This document shows, one piece after another, positions 1 to 12,426 of a stretch of 12,426 nucleotides of DNA (the stretch's first letter is position 1; each line of letters opens with the position of its first letter). Below the pieces are notes generated by a model. It saw only the letters and a program-made list of their open reading frames with translations. It ran no database searches and was not told the origin of the DNA. The translations under genes and the position numbers were made by a program. This DNA is from Methanothrix sp. (GTDB taxonomy: Archaea; Halobacteriota; Methanosarcinia; Methanotrichales; Methanotrichaceae): contig JAXGJB010000050.1 of assembly GCA_040770465.1 (NCBI GenBank), positions 1 through 12,426 of the forward strand. Direction: 5' to 3'.

Positions 1-2376
1 GTCCACCTTCCGGATCGGACCGCTGACGATCGCCTTCCTCTTCCAGTCGATCTCCCAGCCGTACTTCGACTCCAGCTCCTTCATCATATCCTCCTTCCAC
101 TTGAGGGGGAGGTCTGAGGCGTGCCGGACGTAGATCGGCCAGTCTGGAGGCATGCACCCGAAGTACTTCATGCAGATGTCGCAGTAGTGGGTCAGCTTGA
201 TCATCCTGCCCTGGCTGTTGTCGCTGGGCCTGAAGCATAGCTTCGCCATCATCATCATAGCCTCTTCCTTCGTCTCGGCGACGTAGAGGAGGTGTTCAGG
301 AGCGGGCTCGCAGTAGACCTTCGAGCCGTCTCGGGCGTCGATGATCTCCCAGTCCTCCTTCTTGTCGGTCCTGCCGAGGAATGCCCGGCGGTACATGACG
401 CTGTGGGGCTGGACGACGGCGGGAACGCCAAGCCTGTTGAACCCGGTGGCGATGGAGGCGGCCTTCTGAGACATGGCACCCCAGGCGACGCCGCATGCGC
501 CCACCTTGGAGAGGATGTAGTCGGCGATGTCGTCGTAGTTCGCCCTCTCGTTTCTTCCGGCGAATATGGTGGCGACTTTGATGGCAGCGCCGTGGATGTG
601 AGCGTTAGAGACGCAGCTTCCTATGTTGCAGATGTTCCTGCCGTCGAAGCCTCCTGGGAACTGCTCCCAGATCGTCTTGCCGTCCTCGTCAGTGTAGAGG
701 GACATGTCCATCGCCATGCAGCCGGTGGTGGTGACGATGAAGCCCCTGTCCACAAACTCGCGGGCGATGTCGTAGCACTCTTTCGTCCCGTTCGGGTAGT
801 TTGCACATCCGATGATGGCGATGACCCCGGGGATCGTTCCGAGAACCAGGGGTGCGCCGACGCGCCTGATCTCTGTGTCCTTGACGGGACCTCTGCCGGC
901 CCTCATCTTGAACTTCTGGTTTTTGATGTACTCCTGGTTGGCGTAGGCGTAGAGGCTGAGGATCGGTATGTTCTGGGGACATGCCTGCTCGCATCTCCGG
1001 CAGCCGACGCAGATCTCGTAGGTCGTGCTGAGAGGCTCGAGGTTGCCCTTCGCTGCCTCCTGGACGACGTCGCCTATCTTGATGTGGGGGGGACAGACGA
1101 ACTGACAGGTGTGGCAGTAGGTACAGGACTCGGCGTACTTCTTGAACTCCTCCTCAGTGATGAAGGCCTTCGCCCTCTCATCGGCCCGCTTCGGCTTGAC
1201 GGCGATGGCGGTCCGCACGCCGACCTCTCCGGCCTTGACCGGGTCGATGATGGCGACGCCCGGAATCCTGAAGTTCACCAGATCGTCGACGATCTCGTCT
1301 ACGGGATCGTTCGTCCTGTCGGGCAGGCCGAGCATGATCTTCTCATTGGTGGCGATCAGGGGCACCTTCTTTGCTGAACACTCCTGGAGGGCGTTGGTGT
1401 AGACGCACTGTTCGTCGACCATGACGCAGTCCATGACGTCGGCCTCGACCATCTTCCTCCACCAGCCCATGGCTCCCGCGATCTTGGCCTTCGTCCCGAC
1501 CATCCTGTATCTATCGTTGATTATTTCAGGGTAGCCGAGCCCCTCGCCGATCCTGGTGTTGTCGATGGCCGTGCAGCATACGCCTCCGATGTCCACCTTC
1601 TCCCAGAGCTTGTTGTCCTCAGCGTAGAACATAGCCTCAGCGGAGCCCGCCAGGTTGTGGCCGTAGGTGATCAGGATCGCCTTGTTCTTGTCGAGGGTCC
1701 CCATCCCGCACTCGACGAGGGGAGCGTCCTCATCGCCCCGGGGCATGTCGTAGGCGATGATCTGGATCATGTCCGAGACCTCTTTGCCGAGGGAGTCGAG
1801 CATCCCGGCGTGGAGGGCCTTAGACTCGAAGTCCCTGTAGTTTCCTTCCTGGCCGGTGTGGGTGCAGGCCAGAAGCTGAGCAACCTCTTCTTCGACGTAG
1901 CTGAGGACGGGCCCGAACTCCTTCAGGGTCTTGGGCTTGGTTCCGGTGATCGTCCTGGTGAGGGGCGCGTCCACCAGAATCTCGTCGCCCATCTTGAAGG
2001 GAAGATCCCCGAACTTTTCCAGGGTCCAGTGGTAGAGATGTCGGCCGTGAGCGCAGTGAGCTGTGCAGCCCATGAGGACCGCCAGAAGGACGATCCTGCC
2101 CTGCTGAGCTGCCTGGTCAAGGCCGCAGGCACCTCTCGACCGTGTTAGGTCACAAGGGCCGTAGGTACAGAGGGTGCACCGATCACAGATCGGCGAGTAA
2201 AATACCCTGTACCTGTTTATGAGCTTGAAGTCCCAGTCTCGAAGCGTGGCGATGCTCGGGAAGGGGAACGGACCCATCGGTTGGTCCCACTCCTCCACCT
2301 CCTTCACTACCGCGCCGATGTTGATCTGGACATTCTGCATGTCCTCAACGGAAAAGCTGCCTTCCATCTTATCCAT
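1..2376 (-). CDS. cdhA: Acetyl-CoA decarbonylase/synthase (CODH/ACS) complex alpha subunit, 3' end truncated by the window edge
   Basis: Manual translation of the minus strand from ATG at 2376 gives 792 codons with no stop down to position 1: MDKMEGSFSVEDMQNVQINIG...CDRCTLCTYGPCDL...GACG...MGCTAHCAHGRH...TYGHN...GGVCCTAID...VDEQC...CTYCHTCQFVCP...CVGCRRCEQACP...IGCANYP...TTGCMA...IGSCVSNAH...WGAMSQKA...RPSDNSQGRMIKLTHY. These match the B/D-, C-, E- and F-cluster motifs of methanogen CdhA. It is missing from the ORF track because it has no stop in the window. Confidence 0.97.
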   Translation of the reverse strand, partial: MDKMEGSFSVEDMQNVQINIGAVVKEVEEWDQPMGPFPFPSIATLRDWDFKLINRYRVFYSPICDRCTLCTYGPCDLTRSRGACGLDQAAQQGRIVLLAVLMGCTAHCAHGRHLYHWTLEKFGDLPFKMGDEILVDAPLTRTITGTKPKTLKEFGPVLSYVEEEVAQLLACTHTGQEGNYRDFESKALHAGMLDSLGKEVSDMIQIIAYDMPRGDEDAPLVECGMGTLDKNKAILITYGHNLAGSAEAMFYAEDNKLWEKVDIGGVCCTAIDNTRIGEGLGYPEIINDRYRMVGTKAKIAGAMGWWRKMVEADVMDCVMVDEQCVYTNALQECSAKKVPLIATNEKIMLGLPDRTNDPVDEIVDDLVNFRIPGVAIIDPVKAGEVGVRTAIAVKPKRADERAKAFITEEEFKKYAESCTYCHTCQFVCPPHIKIGDVVQEAAKGNLEPLSTTYEICVGCRRCEQACPQNIPILSLYAYANQEYIKNQKFKMRAGRGPVKDTEIRRVGAPLVLGTIPGVIAIIGCANYPNGTKECYDIAREFVDRGFIVTTTGCMAMDMSLYTDEDGKTIWEQFPGGFDGRNICNIGSCVSNAHIHGAAIKVATIFAGRNERANYDDIADYILSKVGACGVAWGAMSQKAASIATGFNRLGVPAVVQPHSVMYRRAFLGRTDKKEDWEIIDARDGSKVYCEPAPEHLLYVAETKEEAMMMMAKLCFRPSDNSQGRMIKLTHYCDICMKYFGCMPPDWPIYVRHASDLPLKWKEDMMKELESKYGWEIDWKRKAIVSGPIRKVD

Positions 2377-2380
2377 CTTC

Positions 2381-2387
2381 TCACCTC
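2381..2387 (-). promoter_or_regulatory. Shine-Dalgarno site of cdhA
   Basis: GAGGTGA on the minus strand, 4 nt upstream of the ATG at 2376. Confidence 0.8.
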
Positions 2388-2428
2388 TTAATGACAAATA
2401 TCCGCGCGCTATAGTGGGTTGATTGCTT

Positions 2429-2446
2429 GATATAAACCTTGTGGGT
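2429..2446 (-). promoter_or_regulatory. Putative archaeal BRE/TATA promoter of cdhA
   Basis: Minus strand reads CCCACAAGG-TTTATATC. The TATA-like box lies ~55 nt upstream of the start codon, implying a ~30-nt leader that contains the SD. Confidence 0.55.
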
Positions 2447-2535
2447 TCTTTGTCAAGCATATGCGAGATTATATTCTCAATTAAATCCACTTAAATGGGT
2501 TTACATATCGTTGAAAGTCCAAAATAATACGAATC

Positions 2536-2679
2536 ATTTTACAAAATATAGACTCTTTTTTTGCCATAAACAGATGATAAAAGCTGCTATTTGAATTAAA
2601 TATTTTACAAAAAAGCACAGAGTTTTCTTTGCGATTTGATGATAATTAAGTGAGGATTTTTGGCAATTATTTTACAAAA
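2536..2679. repeat. Three ATTTTACAAAA boxes at 66/67-nt spacing (degenerate tandem repeat) upstream of cdhA
   Basis: Exact 11-mer at 2536-2546, 2602-2612 and 2669-2679. The first two units also share TTTGCnAT...GATGATAA. Confidence 0.75.
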
Positions 2680-2711
2680 AGGATTCCGCTGTAGATAGAT
2701 TACAGCGGTCC
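2676..2711 (-). terminator. Putative hairpin + oligo-T terminator downstream of aroD
   Basis: Perfect 8-bp inverted repeat CCGCTGTA (2686-2693) / TACAGCGG (2701-2708) with a 7-nt loop. On the minus strand it is followed by AATCC-TTTTT. It lies ~90 nt past the aroD stop. Confidence 0.55.
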
Positions 2712-2800
2712 TACAAGCAAGCCTAATAACCAAAAAGGCAAATCAAAAGGTCGGGATCGGTTTTCGTGATGACGACTTCCGATGATCTGAGAACAGACGA

Positions 2801-3511
2801 TCAGATCAGCAGGTCCAGAGCTCCTCTCAATGTCTTCACCGGAATCTGGCCGGGGGCCGTCGGGATTCCTATGTAGCCGTAGGTGAGGACAGATCCGTAT
2901 ATCGGGGCCACCGCTCGGAGATGTCTGCCCAAATCTCCCATCCCCAAAATAGAGGTGGGGGCCGTAGTATCCAGGAGGAGCCTAAGAAGACCGAGGCAGT
3001 CTTCGAGGGTGGCTGGGGTCACGGCGAACTTGGCGATATCGGCTCCGGCCTCGAACATCTCCGCCAATATCGACCTTGTGGCATTGATGGAAGGCATACC
3101 TTCGAAGTCGTGGTAAGAGATTATCACTGGCCGCTCCACCATCTCCAGGAGGCGGTCGCGCCCCTCGGCCAATAGCTCCACGTCCACCAGGTCCGCCCAG
3201 GCCGAGGCCTCCGCCAGGATCGCGATTCTATCGTCCTCCCCTCCCTGAAACCCGCCCCCCTCCGTCGTCAGTCTGTTGGTGGCGATGATGGGCAGACTGG
3301 TCGCCTCCCGCACTCCTCTTATGACCTTTATCGGGTCGCCGGGGAGGAGGTCGAGCCTCACCTCCACCAGATCTGCTCCGAGCCGCTCTGCAAGGGGCGC
3401 ATTCGTCTCCGCCTCCTCGCCGCTCAGGACTGCCACGATCGCCGGGGCTTCTATCTCCAGGCCTTCGAGGGAGAGCTTTCTTTTGCCGAGCTTCTGCTTC
3501 TTTTCGTTCAT
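2801..3511 (-). CDS. aroD: Type I 3-dehydroquinate dehydratase
   Basis: 236 aa with ADLVEVRLD, IATNRLTTEGG, DLVDVEL, ISYHDF, ADIAKFAV (Schiff-base Lys), GMGDLGRHLR and TAPGQ motifs. Confidence 0.95.
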   Translation of the reverse strand: MNEKKQKLGKRKLSLEGLEIEAPAIVAVLSGEEAETNAPLAERLGADLVEVRLDLLPGDPIKVIRGVREATSLPIIATNRLTTEGGGFQGGEDDRIAILAEASAWADLVDVELLAEGRDRLLEMVERPVIISYHDFEGMPSINATRSILAEMFEAGADIAKFAVTPATLEDCLGLLRLLLDTTAPTSILGMGDLGRHLRAVAPIYGSVLTYGYIGIPTAPGQIPVKTLRGALDLLI

Positions 3512-3576
3512 CTTCTGGTGCCACCCTTCTCTCTCTCTTTATTCCGCGCCCGAGCTTCTCGTCGATCTCAATAGGC

Positions 3577-4701
3577 TCATCTCTCGAGGATGGATTCCTC
3601 GATCTTCATTCCGAAGTGGCGGGCCTTCCCCTCGAAGTGGACCAGAACTTTGTCACCCACCTCGAGGTCGGTCACCGACTTTGGCTTGCCGTCCTCGCCC
3701 ACCAGCTTTATCGTCTCGGCGTTCTGGAGGAGGGTGCTGATAATCTCGCCGTCCACCTCGGCCTCGATCAGCATCAGGGGCCGTTTCTCGATCTTCACCC
3801 TGCCGACGACGGCGGTCTTCGTCCCCCCCTCCTTATCGACGATCGTCACCTCGTCGCCGGCCTTCAGCTCCGAGAGGTACCGGGTCTTCTCGCCGACTTT
3901 GACGTAGGCGTGGACGGCTCCAGCGTTCACCCGGAAGGGGCGGGCGGCGACGTAAGAGCTCTCCTCGGACTCGCTGTGGACGAGGAAGGCGGCTTTCGAC
4001 TGGGAGCCGACGAGCATCCCCTCTCCCGGCCGCATCATGGTGCAGGTGTCGACGCAGACCCTGTCCCCCATTCCGACGGGCCTGACCACGGTCACCATGG
4101 CGGAGACCAGATCGAGCCTCGCCATCCCCGCCTTCTCCGCCAGCTTCTGGACCCTCTTGATCTCCGAGAGGTCCGGCGAATCGAGGAGGATCCCGTCTGC
4201 CCCCTTCTCCAGGGTGGCGAAGTCGACCTCAGCCTCCTCTGCGGTCTTGACGCCGCTGATTATCTTGACCATCTCCCCCTGGAGGCCTGCGATCATGTTC
4301 TCGAGGGGGATCACCTTCCAGTCGGTCCCGACGACCACCAGGTAGTCGACGTTCTTTCCCAGCTCCACCGCGAACTCTTCGTACCTCTTGCTCTTGATCT
4401 CGACGTAGCCCGCCACCGCCCCATCGGCGGCCCGGGCGAGGCTGATGTCCAGAGAGGACCCGAACTCTTCGGGGAGGGGGACCGAGCCGTCACCTTCGCC
4501 GCCGCGGCCTATTATGAGGATGTCTTCTTTTCCCCTCTCGGTCCCGAAGGAGGCGACCCGGATCTCGCCCAGCTTTCTGATCTTGTCGATGTCTTCAGGT
4601 TTTGCCACCACGCAGTCGAACCCGGACTCGAGAGCTGTGGTGATTCTGGGCTTCATCTCCTCCCAGGCGCCATCGCTGGCCATGATCCACTTCTCTTTCA
4701 T
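3577..4701 (-). CDS. aroB': Archaeal 3-dehydroquinate synthase type II (MJ1249-like)
   Basis: 374 aa with DWKVIPLENMIA, LEKGADG, GDRVCVDTC, GEGMLVGS, RPFRVNAGAVHAY, LQNAETIKL and ARHFG motifs. Co-oriented upstream of aroD. Confidence 0.95.
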   Translation of the reverse strand: MKEKWIMASDGAWEEMKPRITTALESGFDCVVAKPEDIDKIRKLGEIRVASFGTERGKEDILIIGRGGEGDGSVPLPEEFGSSLDISLARAADGAVAGYVEIKSKRYEEFAVELGKNVDYLVVVGTDWKVIPLENMIAGLQGEMVKIISGVKTAEEAEVDFATLEKGADGILLDSPDLSEIKRVQKLAEKAGMARLDLVSAMVTVVRPVGMGDRVCVDTCTMMRPGEGMLVGSQSKAAFLVHSESEESSYVAARPFRVNAGAVHAYVKVGEKTRYLSELKAGDEVTIVDKEGGTKTAVVGRVKIEKRPLMLIEAEVDGEIISTLLQNAETIKLVGEDGKPKSVTDLEVGDKVLVHFEGKARHFGMKIEESILER

Positions 4702-4845
4702 GGATCTCGGGATGGGGGCTAAGGTTACTAATTTCTTTTGGACACCCCGGGCGTTCGTCTCGATGACCGGACCGCCGGCGCGATGGTGTGAACCGCCATC
4801 TCGTCCGTGCTACTTAAGAAGGGGGGACGACGATACGAGGAGCAA

Positions 4846-5841
4846 ATGACGGATATGGTCCAGATCCTCATCGAGTCGGCAGCCCTCTCTTTCAGCCTCC
4901 TATCCAAGTCCCTGCCGCCGATTGTTCTGGGGCTGGTGCTGGCAGAGCTGATCGTCGTTTTGAACGCGGCGGAGAGGATCGCCTTCATCGCCAGGCCCAT
5001 AACCAGGTTCTCCCATCTTGGAGATGCCGCCGGGGCGAGCTTCATGATGGCCTTCTTCTCGGCGGCCAGCGCGAACTCCATGCTGGCCGGCTACTACGAC
5101 GACCGGATCATCGAGAAGAGGGAGCTCTTCGTCGCCTCTCTCGTCAACTCTTTTCCCGCCACCACCATGCACTGGAGGTCTCTATTGCCGGTGTTGATAC
5201 CGCTCCTCGGTTTCACGGGCCTCGTCTACTTCGGCCTTTTGATGCTGGTGGGGCTATTGAAGACTGTCCTGGTGATGGTGGCAGGCCGCCTCCTCCTGGA
5301 GGCGAAGACCGGAGATTGCGACATCGGTGCAGACGGTCTCGCCCCCGTCAAAAGGGTAGCTGAACGTTCAAGCCGGGATCGGATGCCCATGAGAGAGGCG
5401 CTGAAGCTCAGCTTTTGGGCCGCAAAGCCGAAGGTGGTGAGGGTGACGAAGATGACGGCGGGGATCATGCTCCTCGTCTCGGTCCTGATCGAGATCGGAG
5501 CCTTCGATGCTCTCTCCCTCCACATGAGCGGGATCCAGAACATCCTGCCCCTGCCGGCGGCGGGGATCAGCATAATAGCCGCCCAGTTCGCGGGGTACGT
5601 CGCCGCCTACACCGTTGCCGGCGGCCTTCTGGCGGCGGGAGAGCTCTCGGGAAAGGAGGTGGTGGTCACCCTGATGATAGGAAACGTCATCACAAGCATA
5701 ACGTGGGCAATTAGGTGGCTGATCCCGTCTCACGCCGGGATCTTCGGACCCCGGATAGGAACGGAGCTGGTGGTCTTCTCGACGGGCCTCAGGGACGTGA
5801 TTATGCTCATCGTCGCCTTCGGGGTGATAGTCCTCTGGTAG
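4846..5841 (+). CDS. Polytopic membrane protein, nucleoside-recognition (Gate) domain family; putative transporter
   Basis: Two hydrophobic halves with ~8-9 TM segments. The Gate-like signature is IAFIARPITRFSHL.DAAGASFMMAFFS..SANSMLA.YY...I.KRE, with a second copy ILPLPAAGISIIAAQF. I prefer ATG 4846 (GAGGAG at 4837-4842) over the track's GTG 4807. Confidence 0.75.
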   Translation: MTDMVQILIESAALSFSLLSKSLPPIVLGLVLAELIVVLNAAERIAFIARPITRFSHLGDAAGASFMMAFFSAASANSMLAGYYDDRIIEKRELFVASLVNSFPATTMHWRSLLPVLIPLLGFTGLVYFGLLMLVGLLKTVLVMVAGRLLLEAKTGDCDIGADGLAPVKRVAERSSRDRMPMREALKLSFWAAKPKVVRVTKMTAGIMLLVSVLIEIGAFDALSLHMSGIQNILPLPAAGISIIAAQFAGYVAAYTVAGGLLAAGELSGKEVVVTLMIGNVITSITWAIRWLIPSHAGIFGPRIGTELVVFSTGLRDVIMLIVAFGVIVLW

Positions 5842-6099
5842 GAGCATAAGCCGAGAAAGCCGATCGGAAAAAAAGCTATGACAATGGGCCTCAAAATACC
5901 ATGGGCCTCAAAGATGGAAACGGGAGCCGGAGGGAAGATTCGCTTCATAGGAGTGATAAATTCCAGAGAGGGGGCTGGCGGAACGGCGGAAGAGCAAGCT
6001 TCCAGATCCCAACGCCGCCCCATTCTGGATATTCAGCTTCCGGCTTCAGATATCAGGTCCGCGATGATGCCGTAGAATGTTCTCCTCTTATTCGGCCTG

Positions 6100-7254
6100 T
6101 CATCCCACCACCGTCAGAGTGTACTGGAATGTGCTGCTCCCGAAAGCTCGGACCTTGATGTAGTAGGTTCCTGGATCCAGATCCTCCTCGATCATCGACC
6201 AGCTCCCTTCTCCATCGTCGTCGTCTGAGGCTATCTCCTCCTCTTCGTCGTCGTAAAGGTGGAGGTAGGAATCGGCGAGGTCGTCTCCAGAGGTCTCTAT
6301 AGTCACTTCCAGGGGCTCAACGACCTCCAGTATGTAGTAATCTGCGTCGTATTCGGGGAGGATGCATCCGGTTGCCGTCAACTCGACCCCTTCGGTCAGG
6401 TTGCCGAGATCCAGGGCCTCGTCGAAGTCGTCGTTGGACTCATTGTCACAATCGAGGTCGAGGAAGGAGATGACCAGGACGTAACCCAGGGTGGAGTCGG
6501 CGTACTCGGACTGGGCGCGAATGGCGTATCTACCGGCAGGGAGATCCGTCGATATGTCGTCGATGCCATCTTCAATGGGGACGTAACCGCCTTCGCTGTC
6601 ATTGTAGGTGTAGAGGACGAGAGATAACGAGTCCACATAGTACCACCAGATATCTTCATCCCCCAAGTCCTCTTCATCCTCGAGTTCGAAGGTCTCGCCG
6701 GTTATCGATACGTAGCCCTGCGACTCCGGCCCGATCTCGAATAGGAAGAAGTCGGTGTCGGCCATCGGATCGATGGATCCGGAGATCATGGTCGTATTGG
6801 CCAGGAGCCCCAGGTCGTGGCCCTCGGAGATGCAGTCGTTGGGCTCGGACTCGGCCATTACGGTTCCGACGGCGATGGTGTAGTTGTCGGTCTCAGAGTA
6901 GATCGAGTCTGCGCGGACGAAGTAGGTCCCGGCCTCAGCCGTCAGCTTGAGGATCTCTTCGTCGTCGTCGAGGTAGCTCATGTTCGCATCGAAGACGACC
7001 AGCCTCATGGAGCTTATGTCTGAAGATATGATCAGATCAGTCGGTGCCTCGACGGTGAACTTGAACCAGTCGATATCGCCGGGATATATTAGGTCCGACT
7101 CATAAGATATCTCGCCGCCTTCTGCCCCGATCGTCCCCAGGTCCGTCGCCCCGTCGGCGACGTCGTCGGTCTCTACATCCTGAGCCAGGACGATACCGAT
7201 TCCTCCCGAAATTAGAAGGATCGTCAAAGATACCATCAATCTGGTATTCATCAT
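6100..7254 (-). CDS. Secreted, highly acidic protein made of three tandem PPC (pre-peptidase C-terminal)-like beta domains
   Basis: Signal peptide MMNTRLMVSLTILLISGGIGIVLA, then three units with the pattern [E/D]xNDxxxxAxDLG...G.I.P..D.D[WFY][FY].[FL].V...L[YF]...[AP]G[TR]Y.[VI]R/K...Y.[IL].[VI]. No catalytic peptidase motif seen. SD-like GAGGGG lies just upstream. Confidence 0.75.
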   Translation of the reverse strand: MMNTRLMVSLTILLISGGIGIVLAQDVETDDVADGATDLGTIGAEGGEISYESDLIYPGDIDWFKFTVEAPTDLIISSDISSMRLVVFDANMSYLDDDEEILKLTAEAGTYFVRADSIYSETDNYTIAVGTVMAESEPNDCISEGHDLGLLANTTMISGSIDPMADTDFFLFEIGPESQGYVSITGETFELEDEEDLGDEDIWWYYVDSLSLVLYTYNDSEGGYVPIEDGIDDISTDLPAGRYAIRAQSEYADSTLGYVLVISFLDLDCDNESNDDFDEALDLGNLTEGVELTATGCILPEYDADYYILEVVEPLEVTIETSGDDLADSYLHLYDDEEEEIASDDDDGEGSWSMIEEDLDPGTYYIKVRAFGSSTFQYTLTVVG

Positions 7255-7290
7255 GTAAATTCCCCTCTACGCAGTATTAAGCGTCAGATC

Positions 7291-7304
7291 CTATATTTAA
7301 TTAG
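7291..7304 (-). promoter_or_regulatory. Putative TATA box of the PPC-domain gene
   Basis: Minus strand CTAATTAAATATAG, ~40 nt upstream of ATG 7254. Confidence 0.4.
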
Positions 7305-7448
7305 TGCTCTCCCGAGAGATCACCCTAAGATCGCCCATTTCATTGAGGCGGTTTCGACGATCGCCCGCCCTCAGTCTTCTTCATCTTCTCCCTCTCTGGG
7401 TTCGGCTTCATCAATAAAAGCCGAAATCGGCTGGTGAAACAGTGAATC

Positions 7449-7484
7449 TTTTTATAGGCTCGGCTCCAGTTCATCATAAGGAGG
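7449..7484 (+). promoter_or_regulatory. Putative TATA box and SD for the repeat-protein gene
   Basis: TTTTTATAGG at 7449-7458 and AAGGAGG at 7478-7484, both downstream of the track's GTG 7442. Confidence 0.5.
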
Positions 7485-7492
7485 AATTCGCG

Positions 7493-8929
7493 ACGAGATC
7501 GATCCCGGCCCTCGGCCTGACGTTGGCGCTGGCGGCGCTGCTGCTGCTGATGGCGGAGGACGCGTCGCTTGGCGCGACAGACGACTCGCGCAGGGTCGTC
7601 CAGGCTGACGAGATCCTGGCCAAGATCGAGCGAGGCGAGAACCTAGATGGAGTGATCGTGGAGGGCGATTTGGATTTAAGCGAAAGGGCCTTGGGAGCGA
7701 TCCATTTCAACAATACCATATTTCTAGGATCGGTCAATTTTAAAAACACCACATTTACAGGAAATGCGTGGTTCATGGGATCTAATTTCAGCGATTATGC
7801 CGTATTCTCGGGAGCGGAGTTCTCGGGTGGAAATGCAGAGTTCTCTTTTGCAAAATTCTCTGGTGGATATACAGAGTTTTCGAATTCAGAGTTCTCGGGA
7901 GGAGATGCCAATTTCATTTTTGCGGAATTTTCTAGCGGCTATTCCTCCTTCTCGCAGGCGAAGTTCTCGGGAGGGAAGGCCTACTTCATGAATTCTAAGT
8001 TCTCGGGAGGGCATACCTACTTCTCGCAGGCGATGTTCTCAGGCGGAGATGCCTCATTCAGTGAAGCTGTGTTCTCGGGTGGAAGTGCCAAATTCTGGAT
8101 GGCTGTTTTCTCTGGCGGAGATGCCTCCTTCAGGGAAGTGGCGTTCTCTGGCGGAGATGCAGACTTCTGGAATGCGACTTTCTCTGGTGGAGATGCCTAC
8201 TTCTCGGGAGCAGTGTTCTCTGGTGGATATGCAGACTTCTCGGATGCGGACTTCTATGGTGGAGATGCCTACTTCTCGGAAACCGAGTTCACGGAGGATG
8301 CCCTTTTTGAGAATGTAAGGTTCACGGGCGAATTCTCTTTAACAAGGGCAAGATATAACAAATTATATATCAGGTGGCATAATATTGAAGGTGGGCTAGC
8401 TTACGATGATGCAGCATACTTATCACTGCTGAAGAACTTCAAAGAGCTGGGCTACTTCGAAGACTACGACAGCTGCTACTTCGAGTACAGAAAGGAACGC
8501 CGAAACCAGCCATGGCCCCTGGTGGGCTACTGGGAGGAAGCCTTCAGGAAAAAGATCGACCTCCTGCTGGAGTGGTTCTACGGCTACGGGACAAAGCCCG
8601 TCAACGCCTTGTATTTTTCTATCGGTATCATCATCCTATTCTGGGGATTCTGGTGGTTTATTGGCCTGGGCAGCAGGCCTGAGTACATCCTCGACGAGTA
8701 CAGTAAGTTAGATACCAGCCTGGATCAAATACACGAAGTTCTCCTCTTCAGCGCAACAGTCTTCCTCTCCGGAACGAGGCTATTTATTGAGCCACCGTCC
8801 ATCCCGAAGATAGGGGGAAGGTCTCGATCTATGGTAAGATGCGCCTTCATCTTTGAGCGAGTCCTTGGGGCGCTCTTCTCGATCCTCTTTTTCCTCGCCA
8901 TCAGCGGGACGGTGGTGAGGCAGCTGTAG
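7493..8929 (+). CDS. Pentapeptide-repeat-like (beta-solenoid) membrane protein with N-terminal signal sequence and C-terminal two-TM module; start uncertain (GTG 7442, ACG 7493 or TTG 7523)
   Basis: Signal-like RSIPALGLTLALAALLLLMA, cap RVVQADEILAKIERGE..VIVEGDLDLS, F-periodic repeats, helical linker AYLSLLKNFKELGYFEDYDSCYFEYR, then GYGTKP + TM, LLFSATVFLSG, and a second TM (FERVLGALFSILFFLAISGTVVR). Confidence 0.8.
   Translation, partial: TRSIPALGLTLALAALLLLMAEDASLGATDDSRRVVQADEILAKIERGENLDGVIVEGDLDLSERALGAIHFNNTIFLGSVNFKNTTFTGNAWFMGSNFSDYAVFSGAEFSGGNAEFSFAKFSGGYTEFSNSEFSGGDANFIFAEFSSGYSSFSQAKFSGGKAYFMNSKFSGGHTYFSQAMFSGGDASFSEAVFSGGSAKFWMAVFSGGDASFREVAFSGGDADFWNATFSGGDAYFSGAVFSGGYADFSDADFYGGDAYFSETEFTEDALFENVRFTGEFSLTRARYNKLYIRWHNIEGGLAYDDAAYLSLLKNFKELGYFEDYDSCYFEYRKERRNQPWPLVGYWEEAFRKKIDLLLEWFYGYGTKPVNALYFSIGIIILFWGFWWFIGLGSRPEYILDEYSKLDTSLDQIHEVLLFSATVFLSGTRLFIEPPSIPKIGGRSRSMVRCAFIFERVLGALFSILFFLAISGTVVRQL
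7820..8287 (+). repeat. Coding tandem repeat, 13 x 36 nt (consensus F-S-G-G-x-A-x-F-x-x-A-x)
   Basis: Units start every 36 nt from 7820 with approximately TTCTCnGGnGG: FSGGNAEFSFAK, FSGGYTEFSNSE, FSGGDANFIFAE, FSSGYSSFSQAK, FSGGKAYFMNSK, FSGGHTYFSQAM, FSGGDASFSEAV, FSGGSAKFWMAV, FSGGDASFREVA, FSGGDADFWNAT, FSGGDAYFSGAV, FSGGYADFSDAD, FYGGDAYFSETE. Confidence 0.95.
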
Positions 8930-9064
8930 CCGGGGCGCGGTCAACGCCGGCCGACAGCGAGCGTCAACGATATTCTATTCTATCAGATCGAATTGAGATT
9001 CCAGATGGGCATTTTTGACGACCAGCTCGACTTCTGCCCGAAGATGGGAAAACTCTTTCAGAAA

Positions 9065-9083
9065 GAAAAGCGCAAATAAATAA
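9065..9083 (+). promoter_or_regulatory. Putative BRE/TATA promoter of the tusA-dsrE2-iscS-iscU cluster
   Basis: GAAAAGCGC-AAATAAATAA, ~60-70 nt upstream of the tusA start, in an A-rich patch. Confidence 0.4.
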
Positions 9084-9142
9084 CAGAACGTGGCTCCCAG
9101 GCGGCCTCTCGCCACCGGGGGCGATTCGTGGCGGTGATTCGA

Positions 9143-9367
9143 TTGGCTGAGATCAAGGTGGATTGCAGGGGCCAAAACTGCCCCGTGCCCCTGGTGGAGA
9201 CGAGAAAGGCCCTGAAGCGGGCGGCGCCGGGCGACGTGGTGGAGGTGACGGGGGACCATCCCGCCTCCAGAAAGGAGATCCCGATGGCGGTGAAGGCGCT
9301 GGGCCTTGAGCTTCTGGAGGTCGAGGGCGAGGAGGGTGGAGAATGGCGGATCAGGATAAGGAGATGA
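9143..9367 (+). CDS. tusA: TusA/SirA-family sulfur carrier protein
   Basis: DCRGQNCPVP (CPxP motif), GDVVEVTGDHPASRKEIP and C-terminal WRIRIRR. I prefer TTG 9143 because GGTGAT (9133-9138) precedes it; the track starts at GTG 9128. Confidence 0.9.
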   Translation: MAEIKVDCRGQNCPVPLVETRKALKRAAPGDVVEVTGDHPASRKEIPMAVKALGLELLEVEGEEGGEWRIRIRR

Positions 9368-9813
9368 CCGAAGAGATGAACGGGGAGATGACTGGGGCGG
9401 ACAAGGTCACCATAATCGTTCACAGCGGCGACCTCGACAAGATCTACAGCGCCCTCATCATCGCCAACGGGGCGCTGGCCATGGGGATGGAGGCGTCCCT
9501 CTTCTTCACCTTCTGGGGGCTTCAGCGGCTGAAGAAGGGGTGCCTTGAGAAGGGCCCCCTCTCGAAGATGAACATGCTGGGCCTCGGCCGGTGGATGGTG
9601 TTGCGTCGGATGAAGGCGGCTAATGTGTCATCCCTCGAAAAGCTCCTCTCCGACTTCAAGGAGCTGGACGGCAAGATCATCGCCTGCGAGATGACGATGG
9701 AGGTTATGGGGATCAGAAAGGAGGACCTCCGGGCTGACCTGATCGACGAGTACGGGGCCGTCGGGACCTACGTCCAGGAGGCGAGAGGGTCGGCGATCAA
9801 CCTCTTCATCTGA
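9364..9813 (+). CDS. DsrE2-like (DsrE/DsrF/DrsH family) sulfurtransferase
   Basis: IIVHSGDLDK, ANGALAMG, LFFTFWGL, LSKMNMLGLG, IACEMTMEVMG (conserved Cys), AVGTY and terminal LFI. ATGA overlap with the tusA stop at 9364-9367; alternative ATGs at 9376 and 9388. Confidence 0.9.
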   Translation: MTEEMNGEMTGADKVTIIVHSGDLDKIYSALIIANGALAMGMEASLFFTFWGLQRLKKGCLEKGPLSKMNMLGLGRWMVLRRMKAANVSSLEKLLSDFKELDGKIIACEMTMEVMGIRKEDLRADLIDEYGAVGTYVQEARGSAINLFI

Positions 9814-9882
9814 GGTTGGCTTTTTGGCTTTTTGATTTTGGATTGAAGAGAGATCAGGAGAGATCAGGGGGATCAGAAGAAG

Positions 9883-11052
9883 ATGTTCGAAACTTCCGTT
9901 TATCTTGACAACGCCTCCAGCACCAGGCTCGACGAGAGGGTGATGGAGGCAATGAAGCCCTACTTCTTCGAGGTCTACGCCGTGGCGACCTCGGAGTTCG
10001 GCTACTCCATGGGGATCGAGGCGAAGGAGGGTTTGGCAGGGGCAAGAGAGAAGCTCGCCGGGATGCTCCGGGCCGGCCCAGAGGAGGTGGTCTTCACCTC
10101 CGGGTCCACCGAGTCGAGCAACGCGGCCATCAAGGGGGTCGCCCTCGCCCTCGGCAAAAAGAAGGGGCGGCACATCATAACGACGAAGATCGAGGACTTT
10201 CCGGTCCTTCACAGCGCCCGGTCCCTGGAGCGGGACGGCTTCGAGGTGACATACCTGGAGGTCGACTCTGACGGCCTCGTCGACGCCGACAGGCTGCAGG
10301 AGTCGATTCGAAAGGATACGATCCTCGTCTCGATCCAGCACGGAAATCAGGAGATAGGGACCGTCCAGGACGCTGAGGAGATCGGCCAGATCTGCATGGA
10401 CAGACACGTCTTATTTCACACCGACGCGACCCACACCTTCCGCCGGATGCCCATCGACGCCAACCGGGTCCCGGCAGACCTGATAACCATCTCCGCCCAC
10501 ACGATCCACGGCCCCCGGGGGATCGGCGGCCTCTACATCAGGGAGAAGACGCCGATCTCCAAGTGGATGGACGGAGGATACCAGGAGTTCGACCGGCGGG
10601 CGGGGATCGAGAACATCCCCGGAGCCGTCGGGTTTGCCGCAGCTGCGGAACTCGTCACCCCCGAGGAGAACGATCGGATCAGGGGGATGAGAGACCGGAT
10701 CCTCGACCGGGCCCTCGCTGAGATTCCTCAGACGACATTGAACGGCTCCAGGCAAAAGAGGACGCCCCAGAACGCCAACGTCACCTTCCACCTTGTTGAG
10801 GGTGAGTCAATCACCCTCCACCTGGACATGAGAGGGTTTGCGGTGAGCACCGGCTCCGCCTGCTTCTCGCGGTCTCTTGAGGCAAGCCACGTCATCGCCG
10901 GGATCGGTGGCGACCACGAGCGGGCCCACGGATCGGTTCGGTTCACCCTGGGCAGGTTCAACACCATGGAGGAGGCGGACGCCGTCGTCGACGCCATCTC
11001 CGAGGTTGTGGAGACCCTCCGGAAGATAAGCCCCCTCGGCAAAGGAAAGTGA
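9883..11052 (+). CDS. iscS: IscS/NifS group-I cysteine desulfurase homolog lacking the PLP-binding lysine (probable pseudo-desulfurase)
   Basis: Full-length 389 aa with YLDNASST, FTSGSTESSN, FHTDA, GPRGIG, STGSACFS (Cys327) and SVRFTLGRFNT. It reads SAHT instead of SAHK and IEDFPV instead of xEHxAV. Confidence 0.9.
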   Translation: MFETSVYLDNASSTRLDERVMEAMKPYFFEVYAVATSEFGYSMGIEAKEGLAGAREKLAGMLRAGPEEVVFTSGSTESSNAAIKGVALALGKKKGRHIITTKIEDFPVLHSARSLERDGFEVTYLEVDSDGLVDADRLQESIRKDTILVSIQHGNQEIGTVQDAEEIGQICMDRHVLFHTDATHTFRRMPIDANRVPADLITISAHTIHGPRGIGGLYIREKTPISKWMDGGYQEFDRRAGIENIPGAVGFAAAAELVTPEENDRIRGMRDRILDRALAEIPQTTLNGSRQKRTPQNANVTFHLVEGESITLHLDMRGFAVSTGSACFSRSLEASHVIAGIGGDHERAHGSVRFTLGRFNTMEEADAVVDAISEVVETLRKISPLGKGK

Positions 11053-11080
11053 AGTGAGTAAAGTTGGAGGAGAATTTGAT

Positions 11081-11719
11081 ATGACCAAGTTTCCTTACAG
11101 CGACCTGGTTCTCGAGCACTTCAAGCACCCGCGGAACGTCGGCGAGATCGAAGACCCCGACGGCAAGGCGACGGAGGGTAGCCCCGCCTGCGGCGACATG
11201 GTCTCCGTCTACATCAAGGTGGACGACGAGACGAAGACGATTTCAGACGTAAAGTTCCAGTCTTACGGCTGCGCATCGAACATCGCCACCGGATCGATCA
11301 TAACGGAGCTTGCCAAGGGAAAGACCCTGGATGAGGCGAAGAAGATCACCTGGAAAGAGGCCTCTGAGGCGTTGGGGGGGCTTCCGCCGATCAAGGCCCA
11401 CTGCTCGGTCCTGGCGGTGGAGGGGCTCAGGTCCGCCATACGCAACTACGAGGAGAGACACGGCCTGGTCACTGAGAAGGTCCCTACGACCCGAAAGGTG
11501 GTGGAGAGGCGGCTGAAGAAGGTGATGAATCCGCTATCAGGCCTCGATCTGGTGAGGACGAAGCTGGTCAGTGAGATCGAGGTTAATGACGGAAAAGTCA
11601 GGGTGGTGATCGACCTTCCGCCCGATCACCAGTTTGCGAGGGCCATCCGGGAGGAGGTGGTCGAGAAGATCGAGCCCCTCTGGGACGTGGCGGAGGTTGT
11701 GGTCGAGTTCAAGGACTGA
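11081..11719 (+). CDS. iscU: IscU/NifU-N Fe-S scaffold fused to a C-terminal DUF59/SufT/MIP18-like domain
   Basis: YSDLVLEHFKHPRNVG, GSPACGD, SYGCASNIA and LPPIKAHCSVLA give all three Cys plus Asp/His. The last ~77 aa have DUF59-like patterning. I prefer ATG 11081 (GGAGGAG at 11066-11072) over GTG 11054. Confidence 0.92.
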   Translation: MTKFPYSDLVLEHFKHPRNVGEIEDPDGKATEGSPACGDMVSVYIKVDDETKTISDVKFQSYGCASNIATGSIITELAKGKTLDEAKKITWKEASEALGGLPPIKAHCSVLAVEGLRSAIRNYEERHGLVTEKVPTTRKVVERRLKKVMNPLSGLDLVRTKLVSEIEVNDGKVRVVIDLPPDHQFARAIREEVVEKIEPLWDVAEVVVEFKD

Positions 11720-11800
11720 AGAGCCGGGTGCCTTGAAGATGGTGATGACTTGATCGGTCAGCCAGCTATGAGGGAGCAAACTCCACCGGAGCATGACGGA

Positions 11801-11812
11801 TAGATATATCTA
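11801..11812 (+). promoter_or_regulatory. Palindromic TATA-like element upstream of the last gene
   Basis: Perfect 12-bp palindrome TAGATATATCTA ending 26 nt before ATG 11839. Confidence 0.45.
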
Positions 11813-11838
11813 AACTGCCATCAATAAATTTTGATTCG

Positions 11839-12426
11839 ATGATGAAGGTCGATCTGGATCAGATCCTCGCCCTCGCCGGGGACCTGGCGGAGGATGGGGC
11901 CAGGGACCGGTTCCGCCGATTCCTCCTCGAATCGGCGAAGGACTCCGACTCGATAAGACAGCTCGCTGCTGCAGCCTCCAAGGCGCAAGACCATCAGCAC
12001 CGCCTCGCCCTCGCGGATCTCTTCTGGAGCCTGGGCATCCCCCTCGGATTTGAGCCCGCCCTCTCGTTCGGGGGAGAGTGGGTCTCCCCCTCAGGAGTCC
12101 ACGTCCTTCTGGAGATGGTGGCCGGGGATGAGGCGCCGGAGATCGCCTCCATCCTCAACAGGGTGGAAAGCCTGGCCACAGCCTCCGACACCATCGCCGC
12201 CCCCAGGGCGCTGGAGTCGGTCGGAGAGGCGGAGGTCACGACGAACGATGGGGACGTCGCGGACCTGGAGGGTGGTGGGGAAGAAGTAAAGGATGAGGGG
12301 CTGAGCGCCTTTGGCCTCCTCATCGTCGAGGACGCCGAAATCCTCCGGGTGGAGGACGCCATCCTCGATGAGGACGAGGAGGGGCAGATTCGGGCGATCT
12401 CGATCTCGGCGCTCCTCGCCCTCTCC
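11839..12426 (+). CDS. Hypothetical protein, partial (runs off the right edge); possibly a degenerate PD-(D/E)XK nuclease-fold domain
   Basis: 196 open codons with host-like GC3: MMKVDLDQILALAGDLAEDGARDRFRRFLLES...HRLALADLFWSLGIPLGFE...FGGEWVSPSGVHVLLEMV...AFGLLIVED...QIRAISISALLALS. Absent from the ORF track because it has no stop in the window. Confidence 0.75.
   Translation, partial: MMKVDLDQILALAGDLAEDGARDRFRRFLLESAKDSDSIRQLAAAASKAQDHQHRLALADLFWSLGIPLGFEPALSFGGEWVSPSGVHVLLEMVAGDEAPEIASILNRVESLATASDTIAAPRALESVGEAEVTTNDGDVADLEGGGEEVKDEGLSAFGLLIVEDAEILRVEDAILDEDEEGQIRAISISALLALS

Follow-up and report, generated by a model that had tools for sequence, protein, structure and literature searches.

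A lysine-less IscS homologue of Methanothrix in a conserved tusA-dsrE2-like-iscS-iscU::DUF59 cassette: a candidate pseudo-desulfurase in a proposed cysteine-independent sulfur line

What can an IscS homologue do that has lost the lysine forming the Schiff base with pyridoxal 5'-phosphate (PLP) and has nevertheless kept the cysteine of its mobile loop? The question is raised by a gene, here called iscS* (product IscS*), on a 12,426-nucleotide stretch of DNA from Methanothrix sp. (GenBank assembly GCA_040770465.1, contig JAXGJB010000050.1, positions 1 to 12,426 of the forward strand; the whole stretch is referred to as the window, and its features are collected in Table 1). An original prediction, made from the letters of the DNA, held that the PLP pocket of the encoded protein had been dismantled by five coordinated replacements while the loop cysteine and the substrate-binding arginine were retained. 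We confirm this observation and find its interpretation supported, and we add two things that lie beyond it, namely that the gene is a member of a tusA-dsrE2-like-iscS*-iscU::DUF59 cassette and that it has a precedent in IscS1 of Methanosarcina acetivorans. The reading that we favour, with a probability of roughly 0.55, is that IscS* is a pseudo-desulfurase acting as the hub of a four-gene sulfur line that does not depend on cysteine.

In IscS, His104, Asn155, Gln183 and Thr243 contact PLP. A MAFFT alignment of IscS* with E. coli K-12 IscS (L010:5318-6532, minus strand) and with the canonical paralogue encoded in the same genome bore out every replacement at these sites (His104 to Asp105, Asn155 to Gln156, Gln183 to His184 and Thr243 to Ile242), as well as that of the Schiff-base Lys206 by Thr207. 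The same alignment pairs C327 with E. coli C328 and R353 with R354, the two retained residues of the original prediction, and adds D181 (E. coli D180) and H206 (E. coli H205) to them. The reported loss of the N-terminal GNP motif holds as well: canonical Asn35, an asparagine in 99% of 116 canonical rows, is absent from the window protein, its position being taken by V34 or V31 depending on the alignment. At positions 104, 155, 183 and 243 the 116 canonical rows and the paralogue have H, N, Q and T, against D, Q, H and I in IscS*. In an alignment of the clade to which IscS* belongs (81 rows, 76 of them counted, the other five having no letter at the key columns owing to incomplete loci or extractions), D105, Q156, H184, C327, F328 and R353 are each present in 76/76 rows and T207 in 71 (leucine in three of the others, serine in one, valine in one, lysine in none), and position 242 is L, V, I or M in every counted row. 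Ser204, the first residue of the SAHT..GP motif, is variable and occurs in 56 of the 76.

A strain-specific lesion, an assembly error or a decaying pseudogene could in principle produce such a protein, and this explanation is already refuted. The same residues recur in 120 protein clusters and in the 76 rows, for which 80 independent public loci were the source; the best 120 clusters are 72-93% identical to the window protein, with IEDF in 120 of 121 sequences and GSAC in all 121, and close and distant orthologues (64-93% identity within the clade) alike carry SAHT, IEDF and DATH. Comparison of the window gene with those of five close relatives (L011-L015; Nei-Gojobori, 15 pairs) yielded dN/dS values, the ratio of nonsynonymous to synonymous divergence, of 0.08-0.16 at a dS of 0.28-0.49, indicating purifying selection on a reading frame that is open and encodes a confidently predicted fold. 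The argument of the original prediction against sequencing error and random decay thus stands.

The product belongs to the class V aminotransferase fold (Pfam PF00266, Aminotran_5, 229 bits) and falls below all NCBIfam equivalog cut-offs of the catalytic families (NifS, 417.5 against 530.75; IscS, 382.2 against 548 and 368.2 against 643.2). Its fold is predicted to be intact: an AlphaFold2 model built on a 61-row alignment has a mean predicted local distance difference test score (pLDDT) of 93.2 and can be superposed on the entries for NFS1 and for the IscS of E. coli and of A. fulgidus with template modelling (TM) scores of 0.91-0.95, those to NFS1 and E. coli IscS (0.93-0.95) placing it in the fold type I of catalytic desulfurases. 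Besides the N-terminus, pLDDT drops below 50 only at residues 326-330, the cysteine loop, as would be expected of a mobile loop. IscS* therefore shares with catalytic IscS/NifS proteins the fold, the loop cysteine (E. coli Cys328) and the substrate arginine (Arg354), C327 and R353 each standing in 76/76 rows; it shares neither the Schiff-base lysine, nor His104/Asn155/Gln183/Thr243, nor an equivalog-level score. From its sequence we infer that IscS* probably has neither PLP nor desulfurase activity. The closest named records are from metagenome-assembled genomes of Methanocrinis and Methanothrix harundinacea (92-93% protein identity).

The genome (94.9% complete) does contain the second, canonical desulfurase that the original prediction had proposed to look for. 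This IscS/NifS, on contig 46 (G000:C46), has every PLP residue (its key sites read H, N, D, Q, H, K, T, C, R) and is 50% identical to IscS*; it stands alone beside glyA and a PUA-like gene (L001 ORF 1438..2805, minus strand). A second IscU with a DUF59-like C-terminal tail likewise lies alone on another contig (G000:C3; L091 ORF 1423..2097). Since both are unlinked, the lysine-less pair is the sole linked iscS-iscU pair in the genome. In five complete genomes from two genera IscS* is the only type I match at E <= 1e-40; other strong Aminotran_5 genes are present in these genomes, at 418-437 bits. Three Dehalococcoidia loci (L024, L025, L086) and one of Methanobacterium (L080) have a further iscS-iscU pair of canonical appearance 2-4.5 kb downstream of the cassette, antisense in the three bacterial loci; identity between the IscS of this pair and IscS* is 42-46%, and the IscU of the pair aligns with the IscU part of the window protein and not with DUF59.

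The three genes that accompany iscS* encode two putative sulfur carriers and a cluster scaffold. The tusA-like product scores 83 bits against the PF01206 cut-off of 28.6, contains the CPxP cysteine, and is the only TusA match in the genome; this cysteine, Cys18, is invariant in 66/66 aligned rows. The tusA stop overlaps an in-frame ATG of the next gene as ATGA. The product of that gene matches PF13686 (DrsE_2) with 126 bits and scores 69.4 against the cut-off of 210 of the NCBIfam DsrE2 equivalog NF047629, for which reason we call it DsrE2-like; its Cys115 is found in 65/65 homologues. Downstream of iscS*, the IscU::DUF59 fusion matches NifU_N with 145.9 bits and FeS_assembly_P with 54.1 bits. 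C46, C73, H116 and C117 of its IscU part are conserved in 73/73 homologues and D48 lies in a run marked as invariant, so that the three-cysteine, aspartate and histidine ligand set of an IscU scaffold is complete, together with LPPIK; the DUF59 part has zero cysteines.

This arrangement is widely kept. We counted linkage in 80 public genomic loci, using for each gene only those with enough flanking sequence. TusA precedes iscS* on the same strand and within 1.2 kb in 56 of 68 loci, and 8 others have it downstream, which makes 64/68; a DsrE2-like gene is directly upstream in 59 of 72 and downstream in 4 more (63/72); and IscU::DUF59 is downstream in 72 of 77, adjacent in 65. The order is rearranged to iscS*-iscU-tusA-dsrE2 in 8 loci, with TusA still linked. 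In seven Chloroflexota loci (L019, L020, L023, L026, L027, L034, L037) 0.5-1.6 kb separate iscS* from iscU::DUF59. The archaeal loci come from Methanotrichaceae, Methanosarcinaceae, Methanomassiliicoccales, Methanobacterium, Theionarchaea, Methanofastidiosia and Hadarchaeota, the bacterial ones from Chloroflexota, Actinomycetota, Desulfomonilia, Eubacteriaceae and Eisenbacteria. Across loci the DsrE2-like and IscU::DUF59 partners are 61-95% identical and three of the four cassette proteins at least 61%; TusA is 51-97% identical to the window copy. Within the class of the window's organism IscS* (at least 66% identical) occurs in 69 of 151 genomes, namely in 7/75 of its own family (6/14 in the genus), 1/3 of a second family, 61/67 of a third and 0/6 of two others taken together. 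Such a patchy distribution, combined with high identity across domains, points to horizontal spread of the cassette under strong constraint.

How could four such proteins work together? With no PLP internal aldimine possible, IscS* could not abstract sulfur from cysteine. In the relay that we favour, IscS* would form the subunit of an IscS-fold dimer that has given up PLP chemistry and kept its flexible-loop Cys327 and its IscU partner. With their invariant cysteines, TusA and the DsrE2-like protein would capture sulfane sulfur (as persulfide, polysulfide or thiosulfonate) and load it onto Cys327. This loading would replace the PLP step and would be the reverse of the transfer from E. coli IscS to TusA. 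The Cys327 loop would then deliver the sulfur to the IscU site, and/or Cys327 would supply the fourth ligand of the cluster, as it does in the (IscS-IscU)2 complex of A. fulgidus, and the former PLP cavity would be refilled and locked by larger side chains (N to Q, Q to H, T to L/I/V/M, plus Phe106). We infer both the direction of sulfur flow and the contacts of IscS* with TusA, DsrE2 and IscU. Every cysteine of the proposed relay (TusA Cys18, DsrE2-like Cys115, IscS* Cys327 and IscU C46/C73/C117) is invariant. The same three families, an IscS fold, TusA and a DsrE-family carrier, make up the E. coli IscS/TusA/TusBCD relay and the TusA/DsrE relays of sulfur oxidisers. In E. coli the catalytic IscS supplies TusA with sulfur; IscS* could not be such a source, so that the flow would have to be reversed or the sulfur to come from outside; unlike the partners of the E. 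coli tRNA thiolation relay, those of iscS* share one operon with IscU. E. coli IscS docks TusA (PDB 3lvj), and the IscS* model matches the fold of this entry with a TM score of 0.94. A complex prediction for IscS* and TusA scored 0.02-0.03 against a mark of 0.32, which carries no weight for or against binding.

Several observations weigh against this relay. In E. coli sulfur passes from IscS to TusA, the opposite of the direction proposed. The cassette is not universal: 9 of 72 loci have no dsrE2-like gene, iscS* (75-76% identity) stands without any partner in 2.8-5 kb of flank in three Anaerolineae loci (L017, L018, L028), two others (L080, L074) are without a good IscU::DUF59 and one (L055) is without both carriers. 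In the window itself a terminator-like hairpin separates the dsrE2-like gene from iscS*, which is weak evidence, as 2 such sites occur in the region against 2.3 expected by chance; an RNA-library contig (9608-9869) spans the hairpin site. Recombinant M. acetivorans IscS1, expressed alone, formed insoluble inclusion bodies (PMC7585200, in part). The lysine-less A. fulgidus iscS2U2 operon gave no complementation of an Fe-S mutant of E. coli, also when sulfide was supplied (bioRxiv 10.1101/2024.03.20.586028, in part), so that the in vivo function of such systems is unproven. Cavity filling alone, finally, leaves the invariance of Asp181, His206, Thr76 and Arg353 unexplained.

Some of these points would be met by a pure scaffold of the A. 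fulgidus kind, in which IscS* holds IscU and lends Cys327 as a ligand, the sulfur is free sulfide, and TusA and the DsrE2-like protein serve another route (tRNA or cofactor thiolation) from a merely shared operon. It would have the A. fulgidus protein as its precedent, the source organisms are, by their record titles, anaerobes of sulfidic habitats, and the three loci with iscS* and no carriers, the gaps in dsrE2-like linkage and the possible terminator would all fit. We nonetheless consider it unlikely, given that TusA is linked to iscS* in 64/68 loci across two domains, that this linkage survives the rearranged order in 8 loci, that the cassette TusA is the only one in the genome, and that the iscS* clade is separate from that of A. 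fulgidus.

The A. fulgidus precedent invoked by the original prediction is sound: in the sections of the sources consulted, A. fulgidus IscS is described as having no lysine and no desulfurase activity and as using its cysteine as a [2Fe-2S] ligand (PMC7585200; bioRxiv 10.1101/2024.03.20.586028; PDB titles), and 4r5f is, by its PDB title, the D199K mutant of this protein. A. fulgidus IscS2 (PDB 4eb5, 4eb7, 4hvk) is also the best PDB sequence match to IscS* (E 6e-99) and matches its model with TM scores of 0.91-0.96; both proteins have the IscS fold, a replaced Schiff-base lysine, the loop cysteine and an adjacent iscU. They differ at the lysine position, which is Asp in A. fulgidus (SSNDIYGP) and Thr in IscS* (SAHTIHGP), in His104 and Asn155, which A. 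fulgidus IscS2 retains and IscS* has changed, and in the carboxylate arginine, lost in the former and kept in the latter. The pocket, moreover, is variable in the Asp-type clade of A. fulgidus (HNDANDSCAQ, HQDASDTCSQ, HSDANSTCAQ, HPDAGPTCTL, with the arginine lost) and fixed in the iscS* clade.

Whether the lysine was lost independently, as the original prediction had suggested, was addressed with 150 representatives at 50% clustering, among which the iscS* clade is represented by one full-length protein (P0122) and two fragments. Lysine-less proteins occur in several places of the tree. In a FastTree tree (158 rows, 3 short rows dropped) the DQDHHT clade of IscS* has a support of 99 and lies inside a loose group of 16 rows with altered pockets, and the Asp-type rows, P0157 (431 bits to A. 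fulgidus 4eb5, with SSNDIYGPKG in common) and its relatives, form another clade with a support of 98; an IQ-TREE tree of 48 chosen rows under the posterior mean site frequency (PMSF) model again separated the two. Forcing all 20 lysine-less rows into one clade cost 29.1 log-likelihood units (approximately unbiased test, p 0.0117). The constrained group was chosen with the first tree already in view, so that an origin independent of the A. fulgidus type, and hence the suggestion of an independent loss, is moderately supported; IscS* is not of the A. fulgidus type as defined by clade or by the Asp substitution. Further IscS-like lineages (P0124, P0128, P0131, P0133, P0146, P0147, P0176) form a loose group with differently rebuilt pockets, for example AQDWGL, RQDHHL, RHDYSP and VGDQHL; one of them, with RHDQDK, retains the lysine.

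How far does cavity filling account for the pocket itself? In true IscS the equivalents of Asp181, His206, Thr76 and Arg353 bind the pyridine nitrogen, the phosphate and the substrate carboxylate, and the loop cysteine of the canonical enzyme enters the PLP pocket. In the iscS* clade Thr76, Asp181, His206 and Arg353 are invariant or nearly so. Of the 389 columns, 134 do not vary within the clade, and just 14 of these are also rare (<5%) in the 116 canonical rows (V34, F39, G40, S79, D105, F106, Q152, Q156, T183, H184, R188, K227, F328 and G343). Roughly half of the 14 are residues known from the PLP or substrate pocket, or their sequence neighbours (E. coli N35, H104, K105, M151, N155, T182, Q183), and one, F328, directly follows the loop cysteine, a phenylalanine at this position being found in 0/116 canonical rows against 76/76 in the clade. 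The rebuilt pocket is frozen rather than drifting, and the relay does not fully explain it.

The invariance of Asp181, His206, Thr76 and Arg353, which cavity filling does not cover, keeps a rebuilt ligand or metal site in play, an idea that the original prediction had raised for the new Asp and His residues. The former PLP pocket might be a new site in which Asp105, Asp181, His184 and His206, with Gln156 and Thr207, bind a metal such as Fe(II) or a small ligand whose carboxylate is held by Arg353; the Cys327 loop would collect the cargo, and IscS* would be an iron or ligand donor for IscU. D105, Q156 and H184, each in 76/76 rows, are among the 14 positions named above, Asp181, His206 and Arg353 are kept where the Asp-type clade has a variable pocket and no arginine, and the canonical loop cysteine already reaches this place. 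Most of the changes, however, are to bulkier residues, as simple cavity filling would have it, buried residues tend to be conserved anyway in a protein with so many invariant columns, and none of the clade members has a reported metal or ligand, all of which makes us regard the new site as distinctly doubtful. Equally tentative is a broader version, in which the cassette would be a self-contained, horizontally mobile Fe-S assembly line with no need of cysteine and the pocket (Asp105/Asp181/His184/His206/Arg353) a loading site for Fe(II) or a sulfur-donor ligand. If this were true, the swinging Cys327 loop would pick up its load at this site, much as it formerly took sulfur from PLP-bound cysteine, and a pseudo-enzyme would have turned into an iron or sulfur chaperone.

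The retained residues could also be taken to mean that IscS* is still a desulfurase, or a related lyase, with non-covalently bound PLP or pyridoxamine 5'-phosphate: Asp181 for the pyridine nitrogen, Thr76, Ser204 (56/76) and His206 for the phosphate, and Arg353 for the carboxylate are all in place. This we hold to be very improbable, because the Schiff-base lysine, the stacking histidine, the O3'-binding glutamine and the phosphate-binding Thr243 are all replaced, lysine stands at its position in no row of the clade, and the lysine-less A. fulgidus protein is, in the passages available, inactive as a desulfurase (PMC7585200; bioRxiv 10.1101/2024.03.20.586028).

The relay through TusA and the DsrE2-like protein remains the reading that we prefer, and a protein of apparently the same type as IscS* is already in print. 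According to Deere et al. (2020; PMC7585200), M. acetivorans IscS1 (MA0808, of the 'isc1' cluster) is without PLP-binding residues and the catalytic lysine, has 318-STGSACFS-325 and a mass of 42.2 kDa, and may act like A. fulgidus IscS; its partner IscU1 (MA0807, 24.2 kDa) has C45, D47, C72, C116 and 109-LPPIK-113. In a genome of the sister family (G121) the orthologue of IscS* is 69% identical to the window protein and has 384 residues, 42.2 kDa and STGSACFS at 318-325, and its IscU has 220 residues, 24.3 kDa, cysteines at 45/72/116 and LPPIK at 109-113, reproducing the residue numbers of Table 1 of that paper; this iscS*/iscU pair is preceded by tusA and a dsrE2-like gene. The window protein likewise has STGSACFS, no Schiff-base lysine and a 221-residue IscU::DUF59 partner with LPPIK. 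By these shared motifs, and by the mass match through G121, the window gene appears to be a member of the M. acetivorans IscS1 type. PMC7585200 notes this type as lysine-less without characterising it, and the paper contains neither 'TusA' nor 'DsrE'. In the literature searched, a scope that left most subscription papers and supplements outside, we found no paper describing a tusA-dsrE2-iscS-iscU cassette and none on MA0808 besides PMC7585200. What is new here is how widespread and how uniform the clade is, that it stands apart from the A. fulgidus type, and that it comes with the conserved tusA-dsrE2-iscS*-iscU::DUF59 cassette. The minimal iron-sulfur cluster (ISC) system MisS/MisU, as given in the excerpt of PMC13066941, likewise consists of a two-gene iscS-iscU core without HscAB, Fdx and IscA in anaerobic archaea and bacteria; MisS, however, is described there as a cysteine desulfurase, whereas IscS* has no catalytic lysine and comes with sulfur carriers of its own.

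The source of Fe-S cluster sulfur in methanogens and other strict anaerobes is an open question on which the cassette bears. Several of these organisms either lack desulfurase activity on cysteine or draw no Fe-S sulfur from it (PMC13066941, in part), and the cassette points to a way of building Fe-S clusters without sulfur from cysteine. Minimal IscSU systems have been resistant to functional tests (bioRxiv 10.1101/2024.03.20.586028, in part). In earlier attempts at complementation and expression, iscS and iscU were used on their own; the missing partners may be why these attempts failed, and a lysine-less IscS with TusA, a DsrE-family carrier and IscU::DUF59 offers a defined four-protein system for testing. 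It would also be a clean example of a PLP enzyme converted to a non-catalytic relay, apparently more than once.

Transcription of the dsrE2-like gene and iscS* has weak support. In RNA libraries of one anaerobic-digester study, short contigs of 4 runs match 9608-9869 and several stretches of iscS* with 0 other letters, and another contig, with 1 other letter, bridges iscS* and iscU. The fraction of sampled words found was 0.05-0.18. As contigs of one study, these data reach neither level nor strand nor a single transcript, and DNA carry-over could contribute.

Table 1. Coordinates of the cassette, of the iscS* codons discussed and of neighbouring genes in the window.
Feature	Position	Strand	Basis or remark
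tusA-like gene, 79 residues, GTG start, sulfur-carrier Cys18 in CPVPL	9128..9367	+	PF01206
DsrE2-like sulfur-carrier gene	9343..9813, start probably ATG at 9364	+	PF13686
Terminator-like hairpin followed by a T-run, between dsrE2-like gene and iscS*	9797..9819	+	pattern scan, weak
iscS*, 389 residues, IscS/NifS fold, no Schiff-base Lys	9883..11052	+	open frame, full length
iscS* key residues: D105, Q156, D181, H184, H206, T207, I242, C327, F328, R353			
Asp105 codon	10195..10197	+	E. coli His104
Gln156 codon	10348..10350	+	E. coli Asn155
His184 codon	10432..10434	+	E. coli Gln183
Thr207 codon ACG	10501..10503	+	position of PLP Schiff-base Lys206
Ile242 codon	10606..10608	+	E. coli Thr243
Cys327 codon, mobile-loop persulfide/ligand cysteine in STGSACFS	10861..10863	+	E. 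coli Cys328
Arg353 codon	10939..10941	+	E. coli Arg354
iscU fused to C-terminal DUF59 (FeS_assembly_P), 221 residues	11054..11719	+	
Pentapeptide-repeat protein, 495 residues	7442..8929	+	
Gene open at window end	11839..12426	+	
CdhA-like prismane/CO-dehydrogenase protein	1..2490	-	
Type I 3-dehydroquinase	2801..3511	-	
Archaeal 3-dehydroquinate synthase II	3577..4701	-	

The surroundings of the cassette vary between lineages. In the Methanosarcinaceae loci (L029-L062) a Metallophos phosphoesterase and a membrane-anchored protein of 480-500 residues from the alkaline-phosphatase/sulfatase superfamily lie 5' of tusA, and a DUF2284 predicted metal-binding protein and a TPR protein follow iscU; all four neighbours are conserved in that family and absent from the window. 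There, the cassette is preceded by the gene for a pentapeptide-repeat protein, of which L012 and L014 have a second copy, 31-32% identical, adjoining on the opposite strand. The gene that follows iscU has no Pfam or NCBIfam match and is conserved only in the four closest Methanotrichaceae loci (55-62% identity, 266-277 residues there). An antisense 'cluster 3' that came out of greedy ORF calling was rejected as spurious, consisting of minus-strand shadow ORFs of dsrE2 and iscS*. The remaining genes of the window, those for the prismane protein, which contains a 4Fe-4S dicluster insert, for the dehydroquinase and for the dehydroquinate synthase, are ordinary for an aceticlastic methanogen.

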